Assembly (NCBI GenBank): GCA_003056265.1
Contig: NBVN01000001.1
Span: 150,001-182,000 of the forward strand
Length of the DNA stretch: 32,000 bases
Reading direction: 5' to 3'
DNA from: Zestosphaera tikiterensis
GTDB lineage: Archaea > Thermoproteota > Thermoprotei_A > Sulfolobales > NBVN01
Shown here one piece after another: positions 11,118 through 31,001 of the stretch (positions within the stretch are counted from its first letter, which is position 1; the number at the start of each line of letters is the position of its first letter). Both the position numbers and the translations under genes were made by a program. Under the pieces are notes generated by a model. It was not told where the DNA came from. It did no database searches and saw only the letters and a program-made list of their open reading frames with translations.

Positions 11118-12218
11118 ATGCGTGACATAGGGGTTGTAGATCTGTATGGATGCGCTGATAACCTTATCAATGAAATCCCGAATAGATTTCCGCAAGCTAT
11201 ATATTTCATAGCAAATACTAAAGTATCTACGATATCGGGAATAAGCATAGCTGGTGAAAACCCCGAGGCAACACTCTATACCCCAGCACTAGATGTTGAA
11301 TACTTAGTCTATGGAGAACCTAGAAGCGGCCCGTTACCCGTTACTCCAGAAGGCATTCCAACACCGGCTATAATCACTAGAGTGGCGTTAAACCTTCTTG
11401 CCATACCATTCATAATCGTTGATGTCGGTAGTTATATAGATCCAAGAATTCCACATATAGACATACCTGGAAAGATCATCGGCGGGAGAATAGATGTTGA
11501 AGATGCCCTACCAATAGAAAACGCTCGCTTACTGTTCAATTATTCAAAAACGTTGGGGATGATGTTAGGATCTAGCAAAACCACTATAGTCGTTGGTGAA
11601 TCAATGCCCGGCGGAACCACAACTGCTATGGCTATAATGGAATCACTAGGTTATAAAGCTATCGGGAAGGTCAGTAGTGCGTCTCCATCAAACCCACACG
11701 AGATTAAAAAGAAGGTATTCGCGGATGCTGTTAAAAGATCTGCTGTTGATATACCCATAGATGATGTTTATAAAGCTGTAGCGTTGTTCGGTGATCCTCT
11801 ACACATATCTATAGCAGGTTTCGTTAGTGGAGCTATTGAGAAGGGCTCTGTGGTTTTATTAGCTGGAGGTACACAGATGTGTTCAGTTGCAGCTATCCTT
11901 AAAAGACTTGGATTAACCGCAAGAGGTAAGATCGCTATAGCCACAACTAAGTGGATTGTTGAGGATTTCTCATCCGATATAAGAGGGCTTGTGAAAGATA
12001 TAGCGCCGGAAATACCCATAATATATACAAAACTAAGCTTCTCTAATTCTCGCTTCAATGGCCTTAAAGCATACGAAAACGGATACGTAAAAGAAGGCGT
12101 AGGTGCTGGAGGTACCGCAGTGCTATCCCATCTATATGGGCATGTCAATATAGACGTTCTATCATCTGAAGTTGAGAAGGAGTATAGTAGGATTGTGGAC
12201 GTAGCTAAAGGTAGGTGA
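11118..12218 (+). CDS. cobT: Archaeal-type nicotinate-nucleotide--dimethylbenzimidazole phosphoribosyltransferase CobT (UPF0284 family)
   Basis: SGISIAGENPEATLYTPALDVEYL, PEGIPTPAIITR, GESMPGGTTTAMA, LAGGTQM and VKEGVGAGG match the conserved blocks of MJ1598-type archaeal CobT. It is divergent from the cbiZ operon. Confidence 0.85.
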   Translation: MRDIGVVDLYGCADNLINEIPNRFPQAIYFIANTKVSTISGISIAGENPEATLYTPALDVEYLVYGEPRSGPLPVTPEGIPTPAIITRVALNLLAIPFIIVDVGSYIDPRIPHIDIPGKIIGGRIDVEDALPIENARLLFNYSKTLGMMLGSSKTTIVVGESMPGGTTTAMAIMESLGYKAIGKVSSASPSNPHEIKKKVFADAVKRSAVDIPIDDVYKAVALFGDPLHISIAGFVSGAIEKGSVVLLAGGTQMCSVAAILKRLGLTARGKIAIATTKWIVEDFSSDIRGLVKDIAPEIPIIYTKLSFSNSRFNGLKAYENGYVKEGVGAGGTAVLSHLYGHVNIDVLSSEVEKEYSRIVDVAKGR

Positions 12219-18134: not shown

Positions 18135-19115
18135 CTATTGAATAACGCATTTACGTTCTATCGTATCACGTAAAATCGAAGCAGCTTCTTCGGGCGTGTC
18201 ATCATATGTGAAGTTTCCAGCACCGCTTTCCACGCCTGCCGCATATTTTAACCTACCGCTGGTTCTATACATACCGTAAATCTCTATATGTAGGTGGTAG
18301 TAGCTGTAATGTCCCCGCATAGGTGCTTGATGTAGGACCATCGTGTACGGCATGGGGTTTTCAAAGATGTTTTTAACCCCACACAACACTTTCTTTAAGA
18401 CGTATGCTAAGTCTTCAGCCATAACTTCATTTACTTGGTTTAAAGTATTGATGTGTTTTAACGGGTATATATGAACTTCGAAAGGCCAGTGAGCGTAGTA
18501 AGGTATGAACGCAATCCAATGGCTGCTTTTTAAGATAATCCTTTCCTTATCGCTTACCTCGGCGTCTATTAAATCACAGAATAAACACCTCCCATATCTT
18601 TTGAAGTGATTTAAAGCGTTTGTAAGTTCCCTCCTTACTTTAGTAGGTATGAATGGAAGCACGTATATCTGGGAGTGCGGGTGTGTGAGTGAAACGCCGA
18701 CTTCCTTCCCTTTATTTCGGAAGTAGAGGAAGTAAACAGATCTCTTATCGCTTAACTCCTCAATATATTTATCTATAACGTATGTGATAACCTTACGTAT
18801 TTCTTCAACAGTTAAATCGCTGAGATCATCTAAATCGTGTTTCGGCGTCTCAACAACTATGTAGTTCTTACCGTATGAGGGGGCGTTCTTAAAGAATTTA
18901 TGGGGTCTTAACTTAGGGGGTTCCTCACTTAATATAGGGTATTTATTATTTAATATCAGTACGTCCCACCCGTGACCCGTCTCTGGAGTGCCGGGGCAGA
19001 AGGGGCAGAAACCTTCAGGGTGCCAAGGCCTTAACTCACGAACGTTAGAAACCATAACCCATTCCCCCAGTACAGGATCCCAACGTAGTTCCTGAACTAT
19101 ACGGTCGCTACTCAC
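18135..19115 (-). CDS. galT: Galactose-1-phosphate uridylyltransferase (HIT superfamily GalT)
   Basis: Zn-site CPFCPG and active-site HPHSQIY (H-x-H-x-Q). GTG start is preceded by GGTGA, which overlaps the galK stop. Confidence 0.85.
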   Translation of the reverse strand: MSSDRIVQELRWDPVLGEWVMVSNVRELRPWHPEGFCPFCPGTPETGHGWDVLILNNKYPILSEEPPKLRPHKFFKNAPSYGKNYIVVETPKHDLDDLSDLTVEEIRKVITYVIDKYIEELSDKRSVYFLYFRNKGKEVGVSLTHPHSQIYVLPFIPTKVRRELTNALNHFKRYGRCLFCDLIDAEVSDKERIILKSSHWIAFIPYYAHWPFEVHIYPLKHINTLNQVNEVMAEDLAYVLKKVLCGVKNIFENPMPYTMVLHQAPMRGHYSYYHLHIEIYGMYRTSGRLKYAAGVESGAGNFTYDDTPEEAASILRDTIERKCVIQ

Positions 19116-19121
19116 GTATAA

Positions 19122-20369
19122 TCACCACCGCATCACCTGCAGGCCTGAATCAACTGAGGTGATCCAGCCTCTAGACGCGCAACAACTTAAAACTTTATTT
19201 AACGCGTTAACAGCTACGTCTTTAGAGTTTGTTAAAGCTATTACTGAACCTCCTAACCCGGCACCGGAGAGCTTAGCTCCATAAACCCCACTTTCAAGTA
19301 AGGTATTAACGATCTTATCTATTTGAGGTAAGCTAACGTCATATAACTCACTAAGCAACCTATGTTGATATGTCATGACGGCACCTATGAGCCTTAAGCT
19401 AACGTCGTTACGTTCTAGCATGTCAATCACTTCGGAAGGTTTAAGCCTTAAGACCTTTGAAACTTCACTTACATCAACTTCCAAACCTTTAAGGATCTTA
19501 AGCGCTAGTAATGTGGATCTATGCATTCTTAACGTAAAGACTATCCTCTTAGACGCTATGTAATCTACTTTAGTGAGGTAAGGCATTAACTCCTCCTCAG
19601 ACAACTCGTCCCAGCGAGGCTCCCAATACTTTAAACCTAATTTACTCTTAAGCGATTCAGGTAGGTTTAACTTCAGAAGCTCTTCCAACCCTCTATTCAA
19701 TTCTAGCTGTCTCTTAGGGTGTATATCCGCCGTGGAATGTTTTATGCCGGAATCAACAACTATGAAAACACCCTTACTGAAGTTCAGCCTCTCAACGTCG
19801 TACGGAGGTTTAGTATTTATTGAGAGTATGCCTCCGTAAGCTGATGCGTATTGATCCAACCTACCGCAAGGTATGTTCATAATCTTGTTTTCAGCTTCGA
19901 AAGCTATTTCAGCCACTTCCTTAACGTTAAGACCTAAGCTAAGTAGCTCGTTTAAAGCGCCTACAACACCAACCTCTAAAGCAGCACTGCTTCCTAAGCC
20001 AGCGGCTATAGGGACGTCGCTATCTATGTAGATTTCGCAAGGCTTAATGAGGCATCCCCGCCTCATTAAAGCAAGGATTGAAGCCCTAACGTAATCCCCA
20101 AACCATCCACTCCCAACTAACTTAAGGTTCCTTAAGTCAAAACTGTCTGAAAGCCTCAGCGAGTTCGTATAAACCTTAAACCTACCGTCATGGCTATCCC
20201 CTACAGCAACGAAGGTGCGTAAGTTAATAGCTACCGAAACGACGGGTAAGCCCTTATAGTCTTGATGTGTGTTGAGGAAGTCTAACCTGCCTGGAGCAGA
20301 AGCTATTAAACATGGCTCTTTATTAAAAACTTCTTTAAACCCAGAGGCTAAGGAATTAACGTCAACCAC
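19122..20369 (-). CDS. galK: Galactokinase (GHMP kinase)
   Basis: Galactokinase signature APGRLDFLNTHQDYKG (GR.N.IGEH.DY-like), GHMP motif PIAAGLGSSAALEV and the C-terminal GAKLSGAGLGGSVIAL. GTG start with a TATA-like AAACTATAGTTA about 20 nt upstream. Confidence 0.85.
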   Translation of the reverse strand: MVDVNSLASGFKEVFNKEPCLIASAPGRLDFLNTHQDYKGLPVVSVAINLRTFVAVGDSHDGRFKVYTNSLRLSDSFDLRNLKLVGSGWFGDYVRASILALMRRGCLIKPCEIYIDSDVPIAAGLGSSAALEVGVVGALNELLSLGLNVKEVAEIAFEAENKIMNIPCGRLDQYASAYGGILSINTKPPYDVERLNFSKGVFIVVDSGIKHSTADIHPKRQLELNRGLEELLKLNLPESLKSKLGLKYWEPRWDELSEEELMPYLTKVDYIASKRIVFTLRMHRSTLLALKILKGLEVDVSEVSKVLRLKPSEVIDMLERNDVSLRLIGAVMTYQHRLLSELYDVSLPQIDKIVNTLLESGVYGAKLSGAGLGGSVIALTNSKDVAVNALNKVLSCCASRGWITSVDSGLQVMRW

Positions 20370-20460: not shown

Positions 20461-20754
20461 CTACGTACTTTTAATGAGTTTCGCTATCCGCACTACTAAA
20501 TCGTCTAGAAACCTCACAAACTCGCTTTCATCATACATAACTAAGTGTTTATTCTTATCTATTAACTCCTTAACCTCAATCAACTCTTTAACGGCCTTAC
20601 CCTCCCTAGACATGATATCTATTAATTTGGAAGCGGCGTCAATCAACCTCAGAGGGCCGTATAGATGCGGTTCGTCAACACATCCTCTAGCGCTAACAAT
20701 TAAAAACGTTAGTAACTTAAAGTGCTCATCCTTCATAAGGTCTTCCATACTCAT
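20461..20754 (-). CDS. Small conserved hypothetical protein (97 aa)
   Basis: Soluble helical-looking ORF (..LTFLIVSARGCVDEPHLYGPLRLIDAASKLIDIM..). It overlaps the 3' end of the nitroreductase gene, consistent with translational coupling. An antisense ORF of equal length (20474..20758) is compositionally poorer (S/L/I-rich). I recognise no family with confidence. Confidence 0.45.
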   Translation of the reverse strand: MSMEDLMKDEHFKLLTFLIVSARGCVDEPHLYGPLRLIDAASKLIDIMSREGKAVKELIEVKELIDKNKHLVMYDESEFVRFLDDLVVRIAKLIKST

Positions 20755-21262
20755 TTAAATGCACCACCTCCTTAAGAGGTCTTCTTTTAGGTGGGTCGGG
20801 CCACTTACTTGGGTAGCCTAAACTTATTATTAGAACAGGCTCGACATGCTCAGGGATTTTCAGGAGTTCCTTAACTGCTAACTTATTAAAGGAAGCTATA
20901 GGGCATGAACCCACGCCTAAGGAATACGCTTCCAACATAATGTTTTGAGCTGCCATACTGGCGTCCATTAAAGCTATTAAACGTCCTTGACTTCCCCCTC
21001 TTTCATATTTAGCTCTATTAACGCATATTACAATCAAAGCCTTAGGGTTACCGAATAAACCAGGAGATACAAGCTTAACCTTCTCTATCATTTTAACGTC
21101 GTCAACCACGATAAACTCCCAAGGCTGTATGTTACTCCCACTAGGCGCCCAAACCCCAGCTTCAACGATCTTGGTTAGATGTTCGCGAGGTATTTCCTTA
21201 TCTATGAATTCACGTATGGATCTCCTACCCTTAATTACGTGAAGAATGTCTTCAAATCCCAT
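20726..21262 (-). CDS. Nitroreductase-family FMN oxidoreductase
   Basis: KGRRSIREF and APSGSNIQPWEFIVV are canonical nitroreductase N-terminal motifs. ATG 21262 is preceded by AGAGG; the ORF-track TTG start is 21268. Confidence 0.8.
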   Translation of the reverse strand: MGFEDILHVIKGRRSIREFIDKEIPREHLTKIVEAGVWAPSGSNIQPWEFIVVDDVKMIEKVKLVSPGLFGNPKALIVICVNRAKYERGGSQGRLIALMDASMAAQNIMLEAYSLGVGSCPIASFNKLAVKELLKIPEHVEPVLIISLGYPSKWPDPPKRRPLKEVVHLNEYGRPYEG

Positions 21263-21281
21263 TATCAACGCCTCTAAAACG

Positions 21282-21959
21282 TCAAGAGAGTAACTCGCTT
21301 AAAACCCTAGCTATGATGGACCTAGTATTTAATACCATACTGTTAGGTCCTAAACCTTCCTTAAGCGCCTCCTTCTGCTTTAAAGTATAGCCTATACAGT
21401 CCATAACGACGAATTTAACGCCTTTGCTAGATAGCTCTCTCCCCACTTTAACGAAGTCTTCAAGACTTGACCTATATGGCGAGATAGCCCTAACCTCAAC
21501 CTCCGGATGTATTTTCAACCACCTCTTCCTCATATACGGGATCTGCTCCTCCCCCGGTATTAAAACACCTAAAACACCCTTAACGTGAAGTGTAGACACC
21601 ACACCCTTAAGTAACTTATCCGGGTAAATCACAGGCACTTCAACGTCATACTCGGGGAACTCACCAGAGCATATTATAACTATGAGATCCACACCCTCCT
21701 TAACGAGTTCATCCAACTTAACCTTAACAAGCTTCACGACTTTGTTTTTTGATATTTTTACTTCTTTTCCGTTTTTTAGCTTTGTTATGTATGTTGTTTC
21801 GTTTTTTCTTGGTTTTAGTTTTTTATTTATTTCTTCTTCTGTGTAGTTGTCTAAAGCTCCTTTCTCTATAATTTCAATATCTTTAGGTAGTAAATGTTTA
21901 ATATCGTTAAAAACATCAACCCTAGGAGACTGACCAATAGTAACAAAACCAACCCTCAA
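21282..21959 (-). CDS. AroM-family protein
   Basis: N-terminal VGFVTIGQSPRVD, VVMDCIGYTLKQKEALKEGLG and the C-terminal NTRSIIARVLSELLS parallel E. coli AroM ([42 protein letters not shown]). Confidence 0.7.
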   Translation of the reverse strand: MRVGFVTIGQSPRVDVFNDIKHLLPKDIEIIEKGALDNYTEEEINKKLKPRKNETTYITKLKNGKEVKISKNKVVKLVKVKLDELVKEGVDLIVIICSGEFPEYDVEVPVIYPDKLLKGVVSTLHVKGVLGVLIPGEEQIPYMRKRWLKIHPEVEVRAISPYRSSLEDFVKVGRELSSKGVKFVVMDCIGYTLKQKEALKEGLGPNSMVLNTRSIIARVLSELLS

Positions 21960-22065
21960 AACTTACTGCCTCCATAATTTAACCGTTAACGAGCATTTAA
22001 AGCTGTATGTATTCTGACAGGTTCTGTATTTAAGTGGCGCAGTAGATTAATAAAAGGTGTTTAAA

Positions 22066-22752
22066 ATGAAGGAATATTTTAAAGTAGGTGTTATTAGAGT
22101 GATATTCATTGAAGATTATGAGAAGTTGAGCCTTCACGGGAGAATTATAGAGAGGGCCTTTCCTCAGGTAAAAACCGTTAACAAATGCATAAAGGATCAA
22201 CCACAAGGTATATATGATGAAGTAACGGAGAAGGAGGCTATCCCTAAGATCTTAAGCTTGGCTGAGGAGATGGTTAAAGTAGATGAGGTAGACGGTATTT
22301 TAATAAGTTGCGCTGGAGATCCTGGATTGGAGGAAGTAAGGAGGAGGGTTAACGTTCCTGTTGTGGGGGCTGGTTCGGCTACAGCCTCAATAGCTTTAAC
22401 GATTAGTGATAGGGTTGGTGTTTTAGGCATAACTGACAAAGCGCCTAAGCCATACTTAAGGATTTTAGGCTCGCATATGGTTGGGTATGCTAGACCGTAC
22501 GGCGTTAAAACAACTTTGGATATAAGTAAGGATTTAAACGCTGTGATCTCTGCTGCTGAATATCTGAAGAATTTAGGTGCTGGGGTAATAGCTTTAGCCT
22601 GTACGGGATACTCAACTTTAGGGTTGGCACCAGTGATTCAAGAACGGGTGGGGATACCTGTAGTTGACCCGTTATTAGCGTCGGCTAGCGTTATGTATTT
22701 CGAACTTATTAGAACGCACACGTTTAAGGATATATTGGGTGGGTCTTTATGA
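22066..22752 (+). CDS. Asp/Glu/hydantoin racemase family protein
   Basis: Two catalytic-cysteine blocks are present: ILISCAGDPGLEEVRR and VIALACTGYSTLG (compare hydantoin racemase CFGDPGL / LGCAGM). I prefer ATG 22066; the ORF-track GTG start is 22057. Confidence 0.75.
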   Translation: MKEYFKVGVIRVIFIEDYEKLSLHGRIIERAFPQVKTVNKCIKDQPQGIYDEVTEKEAIPKILSLAEEMVKVDEVDGILISCAGDPGLEEVRRRVNVPVVGAGSATASIALTISDRVGVLGITDKAPKPYLRILGSHMVGYARPYGVKTTLDISKDLNAVISAAEYLKNLGAGVIALACTGYSTLGLAPVIQERVGIPVVDPLLASASVMYFELIRTHTFKDILGGSL

Positions 22753-23852
22753 TACGTTTCAAAGAGAAGGAGGAAGTCCTTCCGTTAATTTACGGAAGTG
22801 CTTTCTACGGCGGTGGTGGAGGAGGTGCGATAAGCGACGGCATCGAGATAGTTGATATGGCGTTAAAGTTTAAGGGGGAGTTTACAGTCTTAGAGCCTAA
22901 CGAAGTAGATGATGAGTCTATAGTCGTGACTGTTTCAGCTGTGGGTGCTCCAGCAGCTAAGGAAAAATATTTAAAGCCCTCTCAAGTAGTTAGGGCTGTT
23001 GAGCTCCTCCTCGAGGCCGGGATTGAGGTGGAGGGTTTAATACCTCCGGAAGTGGGTGCTTTAAACTCCGTGTTTAGTTGGGTGGCGTCGTCTGTGTTGG
23101 ATATTCCAGTTGTGGATATGCCATGTGATGGTAGGGCGCACCCCACAGGAGTTATGGGTTCTATGGGCTTACATAGGAATCCATCGTATATGTCTATCCA
23201 GGCAGTTGCTGGAGGCAATCCAGCGAAGAACAAATACGTTGAAGCCTTAATCACATCCTCGCTTGAGATATCGAGCAGGTTAGTAAGGAGAATTTCCGAA
23301 GAGGCTGGTGGGTTGGTAGCCGTAGCTAGAAACCCGATAACGGCGGGTTTCGTGAAGAGCCATGGAGCTCCAAACGCTTTAAAGAAAGCTATCGAGGTCG
23401 GGGAAGTCATCGTTAAGTACTTCAGGGAAAACCCTGTTGAAGCAGGGTATAAAGCTATTGAGAAAGCTGAAGGGGAAGTCGTAGGGAGGTGCTTACTTAA
23501 GAACGTAGCCTTAGAGACTAGAGGAGGTTTTGACTTAGGGAAGGCTGAACTCACCTGCGACAGTAGCGAAACCCTAATAACGTTCTTCAACGAATATATG
23601 ACGTTAGACATTCAGAACAACAGAGTAGCTACGTTTCCCGACTTAATCGTTACTACAGACCTTAATACAGGCATACCAATAACTTCAGCGGACCTTCCCC
23701 ACTATATAGGTAGGGAGGTTCTCCTCGGTTACGTAGATAGAAGAAAGATAATCTTAGGCGACGGGCTTAAATACGAAGAAGTATATAGGGATTTAGAGAA
23801 GAACTTAAACATACGAATAGTTGACTACATTAGGGATATACTGCAAGGCTAA
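22749..23852 (+). CDS. DUF917-family protein (family later linked to thiohydantoin desulfurase-type chemistry)
   Basis: N-terminal glycine-rich GSAFYGGGGGGAISDG and a size of 367 aa are typical of DUF917. ATGA overlap with the racemase gene. Confidence 0.65.
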   Translation: MIRFKEKEEVLPLIYGSAFYGGGGGGAISDGIEIVDMALKFKGEFTVLEPNEVDDESIVVTVSAVGAPAAKEKYLKPSQVVRAVELLLEAGIEVEGLIPPEVGALNSVFSWVASSVLDIPVVDMPCDGRAHPTGVMGSMGLHRNPSYMSIQAVAGGNPAKNKYVEALITSSLEISSRLVRRISEEAGGLVAVARNPITAGFVKSHGAPNALKKAIEVGEVIVKYFRENPVEAGYKAIEKAEGEVVGRCLLKNVALETRGGFDLGKAELTCDSSETLITFFNEYMTLDIQNNRVATFPDLIVTTDLNTGIPITSADLPHYIGREVLLGYVDRRKIILGDGLKYEEVYRDLEKNLNIRIVDYIRDILQG

Positions 23853-23924
23853 GGCCATGCTTCACTTAAGTGTTCTAAAGGATAACTTGCATTCTTTATT
23901 AACCGTTAAAACGTTTGCTTAACG

Positions 23925-24884
23925 GTGGTCAAAACGTCTGCTTTAAAACATGTTCTTGAAATCGTAGACTTACTTGATGATCCTAACGTAAGCGGCGGTA
24001 AAGTTATGGAGTTCTTCAGAGGTAAAGGATTGCTTGATTTCATGAGTATGAACGTTGAAGTAGTTAAAGGCGGTAAAGGTTCGACAGACTTCATAACTAT
24101 AAAAATCCCTGGTAAGGAAGGTAAGACGGTCGGTGGTTCAGCCCCTACTTTAGGGGTTGTGGGTAGGCTTGGCGGTGTTGGCGCTAGACCCGGTTTTATA
24201 GGGTTGGTTTCGGATGCTGATGGAGCTATAGTAGCTTTAGCTACTGCCTATAAATTAAGTGAGATGAAGAGGAGGGGTGATGCCCTACCCGGGGATGTGA
24301 TAATAACTACCCACGTATGTCCAAACGCACCTACAAGACCGCATAAGCCAGCACCTATGATGGACAGTCCTGTCGATATATTAACCCTACTTAAGAAGGA
24401 AGCACATCCGGAGATGGACGCTATCTTATCCGTAGACGCTACTAAAGCTAATTGGGTAATTAAGCATACAGGGATAGCTATAACCCCAACAATTAAGGAG
24501 GGCTGGATTTTAAAAGTAAGTCAAGACTTGATAGACATACTCGTTAGAGTTACTGGTGAGCCACCCGCTATAGTACCTATAACTATGCAGGACATCCTAC
24601 CATATACGACGCCGGTATACCACATCAACAGCATAGTACAGCCGTGGATCTACACCACAGCGCCCGTAGTTGGTGTAGCTATAACTACCAGGATGGTTGT
24701 CCCAGGATCTGCTACAGGACCTACGAATATCTGGGCTTTAGAGCAAGCCACGAGATTTGTGACTGAAGTGGCTAAGGACTACACGTTAGGTAGGGCTAAA
24801 TTCTATGATGAGGAAGAATGGAGGAAGATACTGGAACTTCACGGTGAAGTAAAGAACATAATGAGGAAGGGGGTTCCAGAGTAA
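23925..24884 (+). CDS. DUF1177-family protein
   Basis: About 319 aa, soluble. The family call rests on my recollection of DUF1177 (about 300-aa archaeal/bacterial proteins) and its neighbourhood with AroM/OPT genes. GTG start. A T-run (GCTTTTT) follows the stop. Confidence 0.5.
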   Translation: MVKTSALKHVLEIVDLLDDPNVSGGKVMEFFRGKGLLDFMSMNVEVVKGGKGSTDFITIKIPGKEGKTVGGSAPTLGVVGRLGGVGARPGFIGLVSDADGAIVALATAYKLSEMKRRGDALPGDVIITTHVCPNAPTRPHKPAPMMDSPVDILTLLKKEAHPEMDAILSVDATKANWVIKHTGIAITPTIKEGWILKVSQDLIDILVRVTGEPPAIVPITMQDILPYTTPVYHINSIVQPWIYTTAPVVGVAITTRMVVPGSATGPTNIWALEQATRFVTEVAKDYTLGRAKFYDEEEWRKILELHGEVKNIMRKGVPE

Positions 24885-24952
24885 GCTTTTTAATCTTCTA
24901 TAATTAAAGAATAGGATAACTTTATTTATTAAGAGAAAGGCCTTTTCCGGTT

Positions 24953-26581
24953 TTAAATATGTAGGAAAGCCCTTAACGTGTAGATAACGAAGGACACTAT
25001 AGCGGAACCACCTACAGCGCCTGCCCCGCCAACATAGAATATATCTTTTAACCTCTCCGGACCGTAGACCTTCAGTAATACAAGCCTAGCTATAACGGTA
25101 ACTATGACAGCTATACCTGCTGCTGGGTTTAATATCATTAAACCAGTAGCTAAAAGGATTCCTATCTGCCTTTCAGGACCTCCAACAATCTGCAGTATGA
25201 AGCCTACGGGCGCCCACGTAAGTAACCACCTAGCTAACTCAGGGTCGGCGGCTGCTTTAGCTGTAGCGGCTAAAGTTTTGGATGCTGGTGGGAAAAGCTT
25301 TAAAACGTCAAAATACGCTGTGTAGAATATTAAAACCATCGTAACGGATATCGCGAAAGCTAGTATTTTAGCCCAGAATTGCCACCACCTACCGACCTTC
25401 TCGAACTCCGGGTCTCTACCCTCACCCCTTAATATCCACCCGGTCTTTAAATCGTAGCTGAGGTCAGCCATTCCAGGACCTGTAGCTGCTACGTAAGCAA
25501 CGCCTACCCCGTGAGCGATGGGTGGGAACCCAAGCAATAAACCTATAGCTAGTGAAGCAAGTGCTGTAGCGAAAGCGGGGAACCAACCGGCGTACATGCC
25601 GGAGAGACCACATATTAAAGTTGTGAACCACGCCCAGAAACCGTAGTAGAGAGCCCACGCGAAGATCTGCACTGTGTTCATACCTGAATAACTTCCAACA
25701 AAGTATGCTAGTGGAAACGCGCCTAAAGTCCAGAGCACGTAAGTTATTAGCAACCTTCTTACAGCCGTATCAGCACTAATTAAAGTAGGTGGTATGGTAA
25801 CGTTTGGGGACTGTGATGCGGGGGTAGCCGATTTCCTTCTAACCTTCACCCACAGCATTAAGAACTGTATAAGTGCGGCTACTCCAGCACCGACCATTAT
25901 GCCTTGAGGAGCGTATAGTTTGTAAAAGTCTATACCTAAATATGTCGGGCCGTAAGCCCTGAGGAGAAGACCTATACCGAAAGCTGTTATAGCGAAAATC
26001 TGCGTTATTAAAGTAATACCGACTACATCCCCAGGATAGCCTAGGTACGTAAGGGTACCGCCGAATATCATACCGTAAAGCAGTAAAAGAGCTCTCTTAC
26101 CTTTACCTATGGCTGCTTTAATAGCTTCAGCTGTTGAGACACCTATAGGCCACGGATTTCTAGCCGGATAGAAAGGTGAGTCGAAAATGCTGTAGGCTAG
26201 TATTAAATCTATTAGCCCGGCGTAAACTACACCTATTAAAACCGGTATAAGGAAATCCACTGTAGTACCTCCGAGGAGGTATGGAATAGCTATAGTTAAT
26301 AGAAGCACGTTACCTGCTTGGAAAGTAGCTCCTGAAATTACCGTCTGCATTAAGTTAACTGAGTGTACGTTTCTAAAGGCCTTAGCGAAAGGTAGGTAGG
26401 ATACTGCTATAGCTATTAAAGCACCGATTATGGAAGTATTGGGGTTAACACCCACACGAACGATAAGTTCAAGCCCAATAATAGCTCCGAAAACACCTAA
26501 AAGAAGCCCTAAAACCAGTATTGGCGGTGAGTAAACTTTAGGATGCGCTTCCTTAGAGGTGGAGGTGCTCACTATATACAC
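24953..26581 (-). CDS. OPT-family oligopeptide/metal-chelate transporter
   Basis: 542-aa protein with roughly 14-16 TM helices and the OPT-typical DLSYDLKTGWILRG block (QDLKTG..LG). GTG start with a TATA-like CTTATATACTTATATTAAGC immediately upstream. Confidence 0.8.
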   Translation of the reverse strand: MYIVSTSTSKEAHPKVYSPPILVLGLLLGVFGAIIGLELIVRVGVNPNTSIIGALIAIAVSYLPFAKAFRNVHSVNLMQTVISGATFQAGNVLLLTIAIPYLLGGTTVDFLIPVLIGVVYAGLIDLILAYSIFDSPFYPARNPWPIGVSTAEAIKAAIGKGKRALLLLYGMIFGGTLTYLGYPGDVVGITLITQIFAITAFGIGLLLRAYGPTYLGIDFYKLYAPQGIMVGAGVAALIQFLMLWVKVRRKSATPASQSPNVTIPPTLISADTAVRRLLITYVLWTLGAFPLAYFVGSYSGMNTVQIFAWALYYGFWAWFTTLICGLSGMYAGWFPAFATALASLAIGLLLGFPPIAHGVGVAYVAATGPGMADLSYDLKTGWILRGEGRDPEFEKVGRWWQFWAKILAFAISVTMVLIFYTAYFDVLKLFPPASKTLAATAKAAADPELARWLLTWAPVGFILQIVGGPERQIGILLATGLMILNPAAGIAVIVTVIARLVLLKVYGPERLKDIFYVGGAGAVGGSAIVSFVIYTLRAFLHI

Positions 26582-26626
26582 CTCATTATTAAACGCTTAA
26601 TATAAGTATATAAGCATATATGTTTT

Positions 26627-26648
26627 AAGGATTTTATTAAAAATCCTT
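26627..26648. promoter_or_regulatory. Perfect 9-bp inverted repeat AAGGATTTT-ATTA-AAAATCCTT in the OPT/M20 divergent intergenic region (candidate operator)
   Basis: Read directly from the sequence. It lies 46-67 nt upstream of the OPT start codon, distal to the TATA-like element. Confidence 0.3.
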
Positions 26649-26999
26649 TGAAGCATTCGTAAATGGTTGACGATATAATATTCTAGTTTACATATGTAAT
26701 AGTTAACGACGTTATTAATACTATTTAAACAGATTTTGAGTTGTTAATAAAGTTTACGTTTCCGCAACAACTCCTCTCTATGTCCCTTTTTAAACGTCGT
26801 CGGTTTGCTGCATTATTTTAAACATATCCCTAACGCGTTACGAAGGATCTGGCTTTCCTTAACGTTTTTCTATATATATGAAGTGTTACACACTACATAA
26901 TTTAAAGCCAGACTGTTTTACATACTTAGTCTTTAGAAGAGGAGGTTTTCACTCATAAACTATGTCGTTAATATTTTACTCTCTTCCCCTATAGTAGTA

Positions 27000-28343
27000 T
27001 TGGTGAATGCCTTGGTTGGAGCTTTCAGAAATGAGGTTCTGGAGTTGCTTAAGCAGCTTGTGTCTTACCCTACGGTGAATGACCCTTCTAAAAATTTAAA
27101 ACCTTCTAAAGATATAGTTGAGTTTATGGTTGATTGGTTTAAGGGGTATGGAATTGACGTTAACGTTCTTGAGTCTAACGGTTACTACAGTGTTTATGGC
27201 TTGTTGGGTAGTAAGCCTTGCGTGATGCTTTTAGCTCATTTCGACGTAGTTCCTGTGGCGTTAGAGAGATGGCACTACGACCCCTTTAACTTAACGGTAG
27301 TTGACGATAAAGCTTATGGTAGGGGTGCGTTAGACGATAAATCTAACGTAGCAGCTATCATGATAGCTGTTCGTGAGTTAAGTAAGGAGAGTTTAGACTG
27401 CGGTGTTGCCTTCGCGTTTACAGGTGATGAAGAGATAGGCGGCGCTAACGGAGCGGGGGTGATGGCGAAGAAGCTTGAGTCTGAAGGGCTCATACCTAAA
27501 TACTTAATAAACGGTGATGGAATGGGTATGAACGTCATAGTGAGGAGGAGGAAGGCGTTTAACGTCACTATATCTGTACCTGCCTTAAAATCTAGGGTTA
27601 GGGGCTTCGTTAAAAAAGTGAAGTTCACCGCCTACTACCCAACATCGCAACACGCACATGCCGCATACTTCATACCCGGCGTTGATTCCCACCCCTTACT
27701 AACGGCTTCAGTGTTTGTTAGGGAGGGCTCGCACTACGTTAGGCAGGTTAGGGGTACGTTCTTAAAATCTAACGTAATCCCCTCTGAGGTGGAGCTTGAG
27801 TACGTCACTCCAGACCCTCAAGGTGAGGATGTGGAGGTGGATTTAAACCTTACAGAACTTCTTAAATCCTTAATGAGTGTTTCCAGAACTCCCCTTGCCG
27901 TAAGGGGTTACAGCGACTTTGGAGTTACCGCAACACCCAACATGTACTCGTTAAGCGGTAATAATCATGTGGTAACCTTCGACGTTAGGGCTATGGCTTA
28001 TGTTGAAGACGTCGAGAAAGCTTTCAATGATGTGGTGATGAATACGTTACGTAACGCTGAAGTTAAGGTAAGAAGCGATCCAGGCGGATATATGAACACA
28101 CCACTCACATCTAAGTTAGTCACTACGTTCTTAGATGTCTTGAGAGAGGCTGGGTTTGATGGAAGGGTTGGTGAAGGTGCTGGAGCTAGCGACTCAAGGT
28201 ACTTCACCCTCTTAGGAGTTGAGTCCATTGACTTCGGTCCCAGAGGGGGAGGTATGCACGGCGATGACGAATTCGTCGATATCCCCAGCTTAACCGTCTT
28301 GCCGGAGTTGTACGTTAAAGCGGTTAAGAAGTTAGTTAAGTAA
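27000..28343 (+). CDS. M20-family metallohydrolase (ArgE/DapE/CPG2-like)
   Basis: LLAHFDVVP, YGRGALDDK and FTGDEEIGG metal-ligand blocks, plus a C-terminal GGGMHGDDEF. TTG/GTG start at 27000/27003 with a TATA-like GTTAATATTTTA about 25 nt upstream. Confidence 0.85.
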   Translation: MVNALVGAFRNEVLELLKQLVSYPTVNDPSKNLKPSKDIVEFMVDWFKGYGIDVNVLESNGYYSVYGLLGSKPCVMLLAHFDVVPVALERWHYDPFNLTVVDDKAYGRGALDDKSNVAAIMIAVRELSKESLDCGVAFAFTGDEEIGGANGAGVMAKKLESEGLIPKYLINGDGMGMNVIVRRRKAFNVTISVPALKSRVRGFVKKVKFTAYYPTSQHAHAAYFIPGVDSHPLLTASVFVREGSHYVRQVRGTFLKSNVIPSEVELEYVTPDPQGEDVEVDLNLTELLKSLMSVSRTPLAVRGYSDFGVTATPNMYSLSGNNHVVTFDVRAMAYVEDVEKAFNDVVMNTLRNAEVKVRSDPGGYMNTPLTSKLVTTFLDVLREAGFDGRVGEGAGASDSRYFTLLGVESIDFGPRGGGMHGDDEFVDIPSLTVLPELYVKAVKKLVK

Positions 28344-28394: not shown

Positions 28395-29201
28395 TTAAAA
28401 AGCAGCTACGCTCTTAACCCCTTCCTTAAGCATTTTCCTCAGCTGATACTTCATGAAAGCCGTTGAGAACGCTAGAAACGCCGTCGAGTAGAGAATGCCT
28501 ATCAAAGCGGTTAAGTTAGGGTCGAGTATAGGGTTTGAAACCCCTAAGGAATATCTAATCAACTCTGCTGGGTAACTGAAGGGAGTCGCTAAAGCTATGT
28601 TTTGAACTACCGTAGGCAAGGATTTCAGCGGTGTTAACCCGCCAGTCGCTACCGGTAAGATCCAGCTAATAAACTCAACCACGGGCCCAGCGCTACCAGC
28701 ACCTATTATCGTCCCACCCAATAACATCGCATAAGCTAGAAGCACGAAAAGCAGTGAAGCAACACCGGCTAAAAACAGTAATGGGTTAACTAAGGCTATC
28801 GTTGGGGGTGCTACGAACGTCGACACTACGCCGTAAGCTATTAAAAGAGCTACTGAATACCAAGCTATAGACACTGGAACCATGCCTAAGTAATGCGTGA
28901 ATATCGAACTACCTGACGCTATCACATACTCCAGAACACCTAGTTGCAGTAACCACCTAAGCAACCACGCCCAATCCCAAGTTGCTGTTGAGTAAGCTAG
29001 AAACACTGAAATACCTATTAACACTCCAGCAGATAACGTACCTGCTTGAGCCTGCGATTCGGCGAAGAACGTAACCGGCGTTATGAACATGGAGAGCCAT
29101 ATAGCTAAAGACATCAAACCGAAGGCCAACCCCTTACTCCTAATGAGCTCGGCGGTTAGATATGCCTTAAGAACGGCTTTAGAAGCTCTTAAAAACTTCA
29201 A
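28395..29201 (-). CDS. ABC-2 type transporter permease (second subunit)
   Basis: 268-aa protein with 6 TM helices. TTG start in a TTGA overlap with the upstream permease stop, with AAGGAGGGTG upstream. Confidence 0.65.
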   Translation of the reverse strand: MKFLRASKAVLKAYLTAELIRSKGLAFGLMSLAIWLSMFITPVTFFAESQAQAGTLSAGVLIGISVFLAYSTATWDWAWLLRWLLQLGVLEYVIASGSSIFTHYLGMVPVSIAWYSVALLIAYGVVSTFVAPPTIALVNPLLFLAGVASLLFVLLAYAMLLGGTIIGAGSAGPVVEFISWILPVATGGLTPLKSLPTVVQNIALATPFSYPAELIRYSLGVSNPILDPNLTALIGILYSTAFLAFSTAFMKYQLRKMLKEGVKSVAAF

Positions 29202-30013
29202 ACCTTAACACCCTCCTTAAGTTTGCTCCTCTCCCAACGCAAGACACTAAGCTTAGTTAGCGGTAAGTAAGCTACGGCTAAGGCCGTAGCAACGCCTAAA
29301 AGCATTAAGGACCTCTCGACCGTAGCTATACCGGCTAACAACCTTTGAATTAACTCAACGCTGTTTGACGGAGGTATAAGCGCCGTAACTACATACATAG
29401 CTATCGGCATAACCCACCTAGGGTAGTAAACACCTACTAAAACCATGAGTAAGGGACGTAACACGTTCATAAGTCTCCACGACTCCCCACTATATGTGTA
29501 TGTAGCCATAGCTACTGAAGTCGCTAACGGCGAGAAAGTTAAGGCGCTGAAGATACCTAATAAAAGAACTAAAGCGCTAGTTATGAAGCCTTCAAATCCC
29601 CAGTAGAGAGTTAATACAGGAACCACGCTGGTCAACCCTATAACTACCGAAAGGGTTAGACGAGGTAGGGGTATAGCTATGTAGTACATAAGCCTGTTTA
29701 CAGGGCTGGACACTATATACGGCATCGTCCCAACCTCCTCGTCGAATATGGGCTTCCACATAATGTCATCTAAAACTACGAAAGTAGACATAAGTATGAA
29801 GCTACTCACTATGAAGAACGGTGCTGGATCTACACCCACTCGTGAAGCGAAGGCTTGGGGGTTCCCCACAGCGCTACCTACGATTAATACGAAGCCCGTT
29901 ATCATGTAAGGCCATAAAACAAGCATTAAGAGTAAGCTCTTCCTCCTAAACACGTCAGCATAGACGAAACGCATTTCAACGCTGACGAGTTGTTTAAAGT
30001 CCGTCTTACCCAC
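29198..30013 (-). CDS. ABC-2 type transporter permease (first subunit)
   Basis: Polytopic membrane protein downstream of a DrrA-like ATPase. I prefer GTG 30013, which has a perfect AGGTGA 5 nt upstream (30019-30024) and forms a GTGGGTAA overlap with the ATPase stop. ATG 29974 and ORF-track 30064 are alternatives. Confidence 0.65.
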   Translation of the reverse strand: MGKTDFKQLVSVEMRFVYADVFRRKSLLLMLVLWPYMITGFVLIVGSAVGNPQAFASRVGVDPAPFFIVSSFILMSTFVVLDDIMWKPIFDEEVGTMPYIVSSPVNRLMYYIAIPLPRLTLSVVIGLTSVVPVLTLYWGFEGFITSALVLLLGIFSALTFSPLATSVAMATYTYSGESWRLMNVLRPLLMVLVGVYYPRWVMPIAMYVVTALIPPSNSVELIQRLLAGIATVERSLMLLGVATALAVAYLPLTKLSVLRWERSKLKEGVKV

Positions 30014-31001
30014 TTGAATCACCTGCGAAGTATATGAAGACGTCTTCCAGCGTTGGTTCCTCAAGCTTGAACTTCACTATGTCTAAACCTGCTGAAGTTA
30101 TCACTTTAACTACGTCGTCAACTACCTCTTCAGGGTTTTTCGTCAATATCTTAAGCACGTAAGTCTCTTCGGAGCTTTGACTATATTGAGAAACCTCTAG
30201 TCCCATCTCCTTAAACGTGTTGATTATGTGGTTAGGTGCTTCACGAAGATGCACTTCTAAAGCTCTAACTTTAGGTATCCTACTCTTAAGCTCTTCAGGA
30301 CTTCCTTCAGCAACAATCCTGCCTTTATTAATCATAACTATCCTATCGCATACTATCTCAACCTCAAACATGTTATGCGACGTATATAGAACTGCCTTCC
30401 CCTCTCTAGCTAATTCCTTAACTAAAAGCCTTATCTTCCTAGCTGAAGGTGGGTCAAGCCCTAAAGTTGGTTCGTCAAGAAACACTACAGGAGGGTCTTT
30501 AAGAAGCGCTCTAGCTAAAGATAACCTAGCCTTCATACCTAAGCTAAACTCTTCGAAAAGCCTGTCGCTACCGCCTAGCTTATCCAACTCAAGAAGGTTT
30601 AAGAGCTTATCAATCCTATCCTTAAGGATTTTAGGCGGTATGCCGTATAGAGCACCGAAATATTCGAGGTTCTCCCTACCAGTAAGTCTGTTGTAGAATC
30701 CCTTCTCAACAGTTAACATTATTCCTATCCTCTCACGAACTTTATCCGCCTCACGAACTACGTCGAAACCTTCAACGTAGGCTTCACCGCTGTCCGGTAG
30801 CAGTAAAGTCGACAATATCTTAATGGTTGTTGTTTTACCGGCGCCGTTAGGTCCTAATAAACCAACTACCTCACCATGCCTAACGTTAAGTGAGACACCT
30901 CTTAAAGCTTCGACATATTCAGTAACGCTACGTATTAAACCAAGCCTCTTCTTAGTCACGTATTTCTTAAATAAATTCCTAGCTTCAACAGCTATACTCA
31001 C
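30006..31001 (-). CDS. ABC transporter ATP-binding protein, ABC-2/DrrA-like exporter type
   Basis: Walker A GPNGAGKTT, Q-loop, signature FSLGMKARLSLARAL, Walker B VVFLDEPTLGLD and H-loop TSHNM, plus a C-terminal regulatory-type extension. GTG start with a TATA-like AACTATATAATTC upstream. Confidence 0.9.
   Translation of the reverse strand: MSIAVEARNLFKKYVTKKRLGLIRSVTEYVEALRGVSLNVRHGEVVGLLGPNGAGKTTTIKILSTLLLPDSGEAYVEGFDVVREADKVRERIGIMLTVEKGFYNRLTGRENLEYFGALYGIPPKILKDRIDKLLNLLELDKLGGSDRLFEEFSLGMKARLSLARALLKDPPVVFLDEPTLGLDPPSARKIRLLVKELAREGKAVLYTSHNMFEVEIVCDRIVMINKGRIVAEGSPEELKSRIPKVRALEVHLREAPNHIINTFKEMGLEVSQYSQSSEETYVLKILTKNPEEVVDDVVKVITSAGLDIVKFKLEEPTLEDVFIYFAGDSSG

Follow-up and report, generated by a model that had tools for sequence, protein, structure and literature searches.

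The 32,000-nucleotide window analyzed here (Zestosphaera tikiterensis, contig NBVN01000001.1, positions 150,001 to 182,000) carries between its positions 20461 and 28343 a set of genes belonging to a module that recurs in archaea and bacteria. The core of this module is composed of the DUF1177 gene together with the AroM, DUF917 and racemase genes, an importer and a dipeptidase, whereas a two-subunit cyclodipeptide oxidase (CDO) is an accessory. We tentatively propose that the module serves to recover small cyclic amides derived from peptides, with 2,5-diketopiperazines (cyclic dipeptides) as the likeliest substrates, a reading which appears plausible if somewhat short of probable. An earlier note on this DNA had suggested a non-canonical system for the utilization of hydantoins or other cyclic amides. 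The theme of a cyclic-amide or peptide-derived substrate is still the most reasonable one, but the hydantoin scheme is not supported, as both classical hydrolases are missing. The features of the locus are as follows:

20461-20754, minus strand: putative CDOB, AlbB-like small subunit, 97 aa (PF19585/DUF6092)
20726-21268, minus strand: putative CDOA, AlbA-like nitroreductase-fold flavin mononucleotide (FMN) subunit, 180 aa (PF00881)
21282-21959, minus strand: AroM-family protein, racemase-like, 225 aa (PF07302)
21960-22056, no strand: divergent AroM/racemase intergenic region, 97 bp, with AT-rich TATA-like boxes
22057-22752, plus strand: PH1054-type two-cysteine racemase of the Asp/Glu/hydantoin racemase superfamily, 231 aa (PF01177)
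22749-23852, plus strand: DUF917/S-Me-THD-like protein, 367 aa (PF06032 and PF20906)
23925-24884, plus strand: DUF1177 protein, 319 aa, better conserved than any other module member (PF06675)
24953-26581, minus strand: OPT-family transporter, 542 aa, convergent with DUF1177 (PF03169)
27000-28343, plus strand: M20 peptidase of the PRK08554 type, 447 aa, a neighbor and doubtful member (PF01546, NF006326)

The open reading frame (ORF) map of the 17-32 kb segment placed all eight genes at the coordinates and on the strands described before, and Pfam and NCBIfam searches bore out the families, the two divergent units, the convergent OPT gene and the divergent M20 gene. The Pfam E-values were 4.4e-66 for AroM (PF07302), 9e-34 for the nitroreductase (PF00881), 1.5e-21 for the racemase (Asp_Glu_race, PF01177), 2.9e-124 for DUF1177 (PF06675), 4.5e-14 for OPT (PF03169) and 4e-29 for Peptidase_M20 (PF01546); the two Pfam families of DUF917, PF06032 and PF20906, are now named S-Me-THD_N/C. 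The motifs ISCAGDPGL, ALACTGYS, GGGGGG, HFDVVP, GRGALDDK and GDEEIGG were all present in the translations. On the minus strand the AroM gene lies 13 nt upstream of CDOA, and the CDOA stop codon is located inside the start of CDOB, with an overlap of 29 nt. On the plus strand the ATGA shared by the racemase stop and the DUF917 start was found at 22749-22752, as previously described.

The distribution of the module was examined from two anchors, DUF1177 and CDOB. The DUF1177 scan, with one genome per GTDB species, yielded at least 573 relatives; the best 80 loci were kept, of which 41 had full flanks, and a partner was counted when it lay within 6 kb of DUF1177. These loci span Thermoproteota, Thermococcus, Bacillota, Chloroflexota and Enterobacterales. 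The CDOB scan used metagenomes and a five-sequence alignment that reached only close relatives, and gave 24 loci. With both anchors, the core families were syntenic across archaea and bacteria, so that the widespread uncharacterized module anticipated by the earlier note does exist. Partners were found in the following numbers of DUF1177 loci:

AroM: 40 of 80
DUF917: 30 of 80
PH1054-type racemase: 28 of 80
M29-like peptidase: 19 of 80
OPT: 18 of 80
NCS1 permease: 12 of 80
S51 peptidase: 11 of 80
M20-like peptidase: 11 of 80
CDOA with CDOB: 5 of 80

At least one racemase-fold gene was present in 47 of the 80 loci, and any of the M29, S51 or M20 peptidases in 32. By comparison, a single-copy gene is estimated to fall by chance within a given 12 kb of a genome of 2-5 Mb in less than 1% of cases. 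The core pair of DUF1177 and AroM has the widest distribution. Nine of the 24 CDOB-anchored loci carried the series DUF1177-racemase-DUF917-AroM-M29-CDOA-CDOB, two contained divergent DUF917 and racemase paralogues, and in about ten the CDOA/CDOB pair (CDOAB) had other neighbors, for example an FrhB-like protein.

Gene order differed from one lineage to the next, which points to a functional link rather than to an inherited arrangement. In Sulfolobales and Ignisphaera an OPT gene is divergent from DUF1177-racemase-DUF917-AroM-M29-CDOA-CDOB, and in Thermococcus and Tissierella the order is racemase-DUF917-DUF1177-AroM-M29, with OPT before or after. The Enterobacterales loci read OPT-DUF1177-AroM-S51, followed by a racemase in Erwinia and Serratia, and the Streptomyces loci consist of NCS1, S51, DUF1177 and M20 with no racemase-fold gene. 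In the window, the module is rearranged into two divergent units and the M29-like gene is missing. The co-occurrence of AroM, DUF1177 and OPT genes in bacteria, put forward in the earlier note, was confirmed, the three being seen together in Erwinia, Enterobacter, Serratia, Bacillus, Paenibacillus and Tissierella. Orthologues of the OPT transporter, with 680-840 bits, adjoin DUF1177 in the Sulfolobales and Ignisphaera loci, and more distant OPT genes do so in Thermococcus, Enterobacterales and Bacillota.

Two positions of the module are filled by different families depending on the genome. The importer is an OPT protein, an NCS1 permease or a Dpp-type ABC system. The position after AroM is taken by an M29-like gene in archaea and Bacillota, by S51 in Enterobacterales and by M20 in L008, and the exchange of M29-like and S51 looks like a non-orthologous displacement in a single slot. 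A Pfam census of 147 otherwise unassigned neighboring ORFs was headed by Peptidase_S51, ABC_tran, SBP_bac_5 with oligo_HPY, and NCS1 permeases. The PepE-like S51 genes after DUF1177-AroM were located at L046:11591-12328, L049:11619-12320 and L070:11619-12320 (Erwinia, Enterobacter and Serratia). In a Thermococcus-like metagenome contig (L086:17261-19748), the full module with CDOAB was accompanied by a second, divergent racemase-DUF917-racemase set, and the ORFs between the two sets were sized like those of an ABC transporter; this double set points to paralogous modules that act on related substrates.

The nitroreductase and its 97-aa partner ORF, the latter given no family in the earlier note, are by sequence a predicted two-subunit cyclodipeptide oxidase resembling AlbAB. 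This identification rests on the PF19585 match, on AlbA and AlbB being the best matches in the PDB, on the retained catalytic and FMN-binding residues and on the gene overlap. The 97-aa ORF matched PF19585/DUF6092 with an E-value of 1.1e-28 (99.8 bits, for a cut-off of 28.7), and its best match among the PDB sequences was AlbB (8uc3_D, 4.5e-7). For the nitroreductase the best PDB matches were AlbA (8uc3_A, 1.4e-27) and the A subunit of the Nocardiopsis CDO (9exv_A). PF19585 is the family that defines CDOB, its partner CDOA having a nitroreductase fold (Andreas & Giessen, Nat Commun 2024, PMC11055893). The roles of the AlbA and AlbB residues are described in the same work, in which AlbB Y37 is the catalytic base. 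In ungapped stretches of the HMMER alignments, CDOB Y32 aligned with this tyrosine, CDOA S45 with AlbA S54, and CDOA R15, R19 and R162 with the FMN-phosphate arginines R24, R28 and R175 of AlbA. Furthermore, CDOB E28, P29, R36 and M73 corresponded to the conserved AlbB residues E33, P34, R41 and M78, and CDOA C122-P123 to AlbA C135-P136. CDOA has a shorter E2 cap loop, and the pocket residue A58 of AlbA is replaced by a proline. The cysteine that binds FMN covalently in AlbA, C115, is replaced by Asp102, and this aspartate was kept in 20 close relatives. The covalent 8-alpha-S-cysteinyl FMN is limited to CDOs linked to a cyclodipeptide synthase (CDPS) and the cysteine is missing in most non-CDPS CDOAs (PMC11055893), so that this feature does not define the wider CDO family. 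No CDPS or nonribosomal peptide synthetase (NRPS) family was seen among the Pfam matches for the ORFs scanned across the window, which, with an importer present, indicates a catabolic context.

On several hot-spring metagenome contigs, solitary CDOA/CDOB pairs closely follow, on the downstream side, a gene encoding about 470 aa. In L089 (7660-9075), the only one of these scanned, the product contains FrhB/FdhB (F420-hydrogenase beta-like), 4Fe-4S and TrmB-like domains, and L091 and L092 resemble this arrangement by ORF size and position. The FrhB-like protein is a candidate electron-transfer partner for the CDO in anaerobes.

In AroM, C97 (C.G.FP) and C188 (DC.GY) were kept in at least 90% of 46 homologues, in which the TIGQSPR.D and SPY motifs are conserved too. 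These cysteines correspond in position to C84 and C182 in the racemase, and the racemase gave a weak cross-match to the AroM Pfam model. AroM therefore fits a putative two-thiol racemase or epimerase; a sequence search of the PDB with AroM gave no match. The racemase itself had been described in the earlier note as a member of the Asp/Glu/hydantoin family with both catalytic cysteines. Both of them, in the motifs SCA.DP and CTG.ST, were indeed conserved in 31 homologues, but the closest structure, P. horikoshii PH1054 (PDB 2EQ5, 6.5e-68), is labelled only as a "hypothetical hydantoin racemase". The match to allantoin racemase (5lfd) had an E-value of 3e-7. In two Chloroflexota metagenome-assembled genomes (MAGs), Anaerolineae and Anaerolineales (L053:11151-12632 and L061:1900-3438), a stop-free ORF of about 500 aa just downstream of DUF1177-AroM combines a complete IclR-type regulator (HTH_IclR and IclR_C) and the PF01177 racemase domain of the module. 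This ORF may be a regulator-racemase fusion, or two genes in frame.

For DUF917, the earlier note had considered a desulfuration step. The protein gave a full-length match of 242 bits to the NCBIfam thiohydantoin desulfurase model NF058529, for which the equivalog cut-off is 440. The module homologues in other loci reached 299-313 bits, and divergent paralogues, some of them adjoining CDOAB, 68-96 bits. As every related-locus DUF917 tested thus scored 68-313 bits, below the cut-off, the module proteins form a sister clade rather than equivalogs, and desulfuration is not indicated by these scores. The AlphaFold2 model of DUF917 had a predicted local distance difference test (pLDDT) value of 92, and in Foldseek it matched only 2O3I, an uncharacterized member of its own family, with no significant match outside this family and none to a hydantoinase. 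DUF917 was consequently rejected as a hydantoinase by fold. Its invariant residues include G22-G26 (the GGGGGG loop), R129-A130-H131-P132 (GRAHP), R194-N195-P196, N281-E282 and F296-L299 (FPDL).

DUF1177 was about 70% identical across archaeal phyla and 52-55% identical to its homologues in Streptomyces, Bacillus and Enterobacterales. Its AlphaFold2 model (predicted template modelling score 0.81, mean pLDDT 69) matched M17 leucyl aminopeptidases, M28 aminopeptidases, the catalytic domain of DapE and glutaminyl cyclase in a Foldseek search of the PDB, with a probability of 1.0, E-values of 7e-9 to 6e-7 and TM-scores of 0.45-0.59. According to this model, DUF1177 has the alpha/beta fold of the co-catalytic metallo-aminopeptidases. 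A phmmer search of the PDB gave no sequence match to DUF1177, and hhalign detected no signal between it and the M20 profile (probability 0.4%), so that metal ligands could not be mapped in this way. The invariant residues include D97, D99, H130, D171, E192, D223, H233, E273 and H306, and the invariant motifs proper to the family include SDADG, HxCP and DATKAN.

The M20 gene had been proposed as the final deacylation step, and this did not hold up. Its product passed the equivalog model NF006326 (PRK08554 "peptidase") with 557 bits for a cut-off of 354, and no Pfam match to the M20 dimerization domain PF07687 was found in it; the caveat that it does not belong to the AmaB/HyuC branch was therefore justified. 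Unrelated genes surround all four orthologues examined, which are 71, 58, 53 and 49% identical and come from a metagenome contig, a Sulfolobales MAG, a Desulfurococcaceae genome and T. kodakarensis, and on this ground the gene was rejected as a member of the module. Among the 80 loci, only the truncated L008 had an orthologous M20 at 6 kb or less from DUF1177, and the 41 loci with full flanks had none. It stands beside the module only in L001, a near-identical contig, and in L008, where an M20 fragment comes right after AroM. The gene is probably a housekeeping peptidase which happens to adjoin the module, and at most it fills the variable peptidase slot in one lineage.

We propose the following course for the salvage of cyclic dipeptides. 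The compound would be imported by OPT, and the two racemase-fold enzymes would invert its acidic C-alpha centers to give the isomer accepted by the hydrolases. DUF917 would then open the ring to a linear dipeptide, a role which DUF1177 would take over in genomes devoid of DUF917, and the dipeptide would be split into amino acids by DUF1177 and the lineage-specific dipeptidase. CDOAB would dehydrogenate the C-alpha to C-beta bond of some diketopiperazines, from which hydrolysis would then release ammonia and a 2-oxo acid. Four points make diketopiperazines the best fit. They, and not hydantoins, are the sole known substrates of CDOs (PMC11055893); their two stereocenters could explain the presence of two racemase-fold enzymes; the opening of the ring gives a dipeptide, which would account for the ever-present and interchangeable dipeptidase; and they are compact enough for NCS1-type permeases and peptide-like enough for OPT or Dpp systems. 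DUF917 is the obvious candidate for the ring opener, and as the Enterobacterales loci lack it, DUF1177 is left for this role there. The enzymes that hydrolyze diketopiperazines were unidentified as of 2013 (PMC3852281), and no gene family assigned to the opening of the ring was found in the literature searched. Searches on DUF1177, PF06675, AroM, thiohydantoin desulfurase and ergothioneine catabolism returned nothing functional beyond PMC11055893.

Several observations weigh against the salvage of diketopiperazines. CDOAB was present in just five of the DUF1177 loci, and the core substrate therefore need not be a CDO substrate. In 19 of the 41 loci with full flanks, DUF1177 stood without any partner detectable by the window queries. 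The characterized CDOs require O2 (PMC11760959), yet anaerobic lineages, Ignisphaera and Thermococcus among them, include close relatives of the locus; the electron acceptor may thus differ. The DUF1177 model is weakest exactly in the most conserved loops: the segments with a pLDDT below 50 (residues 84-96, 137-147, 174-183, 218-237 and 256-267) coincide with the invariant motifs GGxGARP, PxPMM, KAN and PITxQD...YH, and no metal ligands could be mapped. These segments may be active-site loops which become ordered only with metal, substrate or oligomerization, and the shallow alignment of 19 sequences could also explain the low values. The activities of all the module proteins are predicted ones. 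Finally, the DUF917 proteins linked to DUF1177 appear as fairly close sisters of the thiohydantoin desulfurases (240-313 bits for the cut-off of 440), the nearest named relatives of the racemase are by sequence hydantoin and allantoin racemases, and NCS1 is the hydantoin/allantoin permease family. This kinship points to five-membered ureide rings rather than to diketopiperazines.

A bolder version of the proposal is that DUF917, DUF1177 or both are diketopiperazine hydrolases and that DUF1177-AroM-DUF917-racemase constitutes a universal pathway of cyclic-dipeptide catabolism in archaea and bacteria, which we consider doubtful. Were it true, the racemase-fold enzymes would be diketopiperazine epimerases, a reaction class new to their superfamily, the CDO would run with an electron acceptor other than oxygen, and hyperthermophiles would recover the racemized cyclic dipeptides formed spontaneously from peptides at high temperature.

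The module might instead salvage linear di- or oligopeptides of unusual stereochemistry or structure (for example with D-residues, isoaspartyl or heat-damaged ones) with no ring chemistry, which we regard as unlikely. They would be imported by OPT and hydrolyzed by DUF1177 and the M29, S51 or M20 peptidases, and AroM and the racemase would convert the released D-amino acids, of the Asp or Glu type, to the L-form. The predicted aminopeptidase fold of DUF1177, the recurrent dipeptidase slot with its PepE-like S51 members (the characterized ones being specific for Asp-X), the recurrence of OPT and Dpp-type peptide transporters, and the place of both racemase-fold proteins in the Asp/Glu racemase superfamily are all consistent with it, as is the origin of many loci from thermophiles, in which the racemization of peptides is presumably fast. 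However, DUF917, whose known relatives act on cyclic thioureides, would be left unexplained, as would CDOAB and the NCS1 permeases, carriers of compact heterocycles. In addition, the racemase is far from the characterized Asp/Glu racemases, with 31.5 bits on the glutamate racemase model for a cut-off of 146.65.

A non-canonical utilization of hydantoins, in which a 5-substituted hydantoin or ureide is imported, racemized by a HyuE-like enzyme, opened or modified by DUF917, DUF1177 or AroM and finally processed by M20 as a carbamoylase, also seems rather improbable. It would account for the proximity of the racemase to 2EQ5 and allantoin racemase, for the thiohydantoin desulfurases as the sole named relatives of DUF917, and for the replacement of OPT by NCS1 permeases in 12 loci. 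Against this, no Amidohydro or Hydantoinase_A/B match was found by Pfam among the window ORFs scanned, so that neither known type of hydantoinase, dihydropyrimidinase or HyuA/B, is present, as the earlier note had already stated. The DUF917 model is unrelated in fold to the solved hydantoinases present in the Foldseek list, the M20 protein is a non-syntenic PRK08554-type peptidase with no dimerization domain, the flavoenzyme pair corresponds to a CDO, with diketopiperazines as known substrates, and the neighborhoods are rich in dipeptidases and peptide transporters.

The homology of CDOAB to the tailoring enzyme of albonoursin, and the possible "novel peptide-based secondary metabolites" evoked by Andreas & Giessen (PMC11055893), could suggest that the cluster produces a dehydrogenated cyclic dipeptide or some modified peptide natural product, but this is very unlikely given that no CDPS, NRPS or other scaffold-forming enzyme was found in the window, that the cluster includes importers and several peptidases, that the covalent-FMN cysteine of the CDPS-linked CDOs is replaced by Asp102 and that most genomes have the core without the CDO. 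A chance or strain-specific adjacency, to which the two divergent units devoid of the M29-like gene (unlike the collinear order in relatives) and the non-conserved position of M20 might point, is the least credible explanation and is contradicted for the core genes by the synteny counts, the same families co-occurring in several orders in many phyla of two domains, and by the racemase/DUF917 and CDOA/CDOB overlaps; it still holds for M20.

This type of cluster has been known since 2024, its function being uncharacterized, and the window locus is a further example. Non-CDPS CDO clusters are enriched in PF01177, PF06032, PF07302, OPT and peptidases, with Thermoproteota among the phyla (PMC11055893). 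Like the locus described here, they associate CDOA and CDOB with a PF01177 racemase, DUF917, AroM, OPT and peptidases, and the dataset includes Ignisphaera MAGs that are close relatives of the window CDOB. That study was anchored on CDOB, and DUF1177/PF06675 does not appear in its text or in the portion of its supplements covered here; in the present counts, by contrast, DUF1177 with AroM is the most widespread and the CDO an accessory. DUF917 was regarded there as hydantoinase-like, whereas no significant match outside its own family was obtained here by Foldseek. What is added is therefore the position of DUF1177 as the most conserved core component, with a predicted aminopeptidase fold, the filling of the peptidase and transporter slots by families that change from one lineage to another, the exclusion of M20 from the module, and a DUF917 which is not hydantoinase-like by its modelled fold.

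The window pair resembles the AlbAB and NdasCDO enzymes (8UC3, 9EXV) in its overlapping genes, in joining a nitroreductase-fold A subunit to a B subunit some 100 aa long, and in keeping the catalytic Ser of A and Tyr of B, the arginines that bind the FMN phosphate and the Cys-Pro motif on the si face; those enzymes differ by the CDPS pathway, the covalent FMN cysteine (AlbA C115) and the biosynthetic context. Classical hyu operons comprise an NCS1 permease, the HyuE racemase, a hydantoinase and an N-carbamoyl-amino-acid amidohydrolase. The logic of an importer, a two-cysteine racemase from one and the same superfamily and hydrolases is shared with the window, and NCS1 permeases with some of the related loci. 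The window lacks the dihydropyrimidinase-type or HyuA/B hydantoinase and the carbamoylase-type M20 with a dimerization domain, and contains DUF1177, AroM, DUF917 and CDOAB, which hyu operons do not include, with OPT as the transporter. The thiohydantoin and S-methyl-thiohydantoin desulfurases (NF058529, NF058532) resemble the DUF917 protein in combining PF06032 and PF20906 and in the fold of 2O3I, and no other gene of ergothioneine catabolism was seen among the Pfam matches in the window. With the M17, M28 (SGAP/AAP) and DapE metallo-aminopeptidases, the DUF1177 model shares the fold with no detectable sequence similarity.

Cyclic dipeptides abound as microbial signals, in food and among the products of the heat degradation of peptides. 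DUF917, DUF1177, AroM and the PH1054-type racemase constitute a compact set of candidates for the opening of the diketopiperazine ring, and the module exists in tractable organisms (Serratia, Erwinia, Paenibacillus, Bacillus and Thermococcus). Assigned activities would annotate four widespread families, including the E. coli orphan aroM, and would explain the 88% of CDO clusters devoid of a cyclodipeptide synthase. Thermostable ring-opening or epimerizing enzymes would be useful for the production of chiral dipeptides and amino acids.

The intergenic regions were compared as well. The AroM/racemase and OPT/M20 regions, the latter being an unusually long divergent gap of 418 bp, have the TATA-like words CATAATTTAA and ATTTAAAGC in common, and beyond such AT-rich words no convincing shared operator was found; there is thus no evidence for co-regulation. 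A near-perfect palindrome, AAGGATTTTATTAAAAATCCTT, with 9-nt arms and a 4-nt spacer, is located at 26627-26648, about 46 nt upstream of the OPT start. It could be a binding site for a regulator, and it has no counterpart in the AroM/racemase region. A sigma-70 and terminator scan gave fewer matches than shuffled sequence, these models being inapplicable to archaea, and Rfam and tRNA scans of the window showed no RNA genes.

According to Pfam, the rest of the window is devoted to cobalamin salvage, pyrimidine synthesis, galK/galT, an S8 protease and transporters. The galK-like (GHMP kinase with the galactokinase signature) and galT-like genes occupy 18135-20369 on the minus strand, from 91 nt downstream of CDOB. 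They were rejected as part of the unit, this adjacency being seen in no related locus, and are probably unrelated to it. A 366-aa ORF at 11118-12218 has no Pfam match. The segment 6578-18022 is a cobalamin salvage and remodelling region with CobD/CbiB, CobS, a class I/II aminotransferase, a MobA-like nucleotidyltransferase and a CbiZ-PgpA-like fusion; a BtuFCD-like ABC importer (Peripla_BP_2, FecCD, ABC_tran) lies further along, with pyrE/pyrF-like and a few other genes between. Beyond M20, at 28395-31001, two polytopic membrane proteins without Pfam match (28395-29201 and 29198-30064) and an ATPase (PF00005, 30006-31001) form an ABC exporter-like unit.

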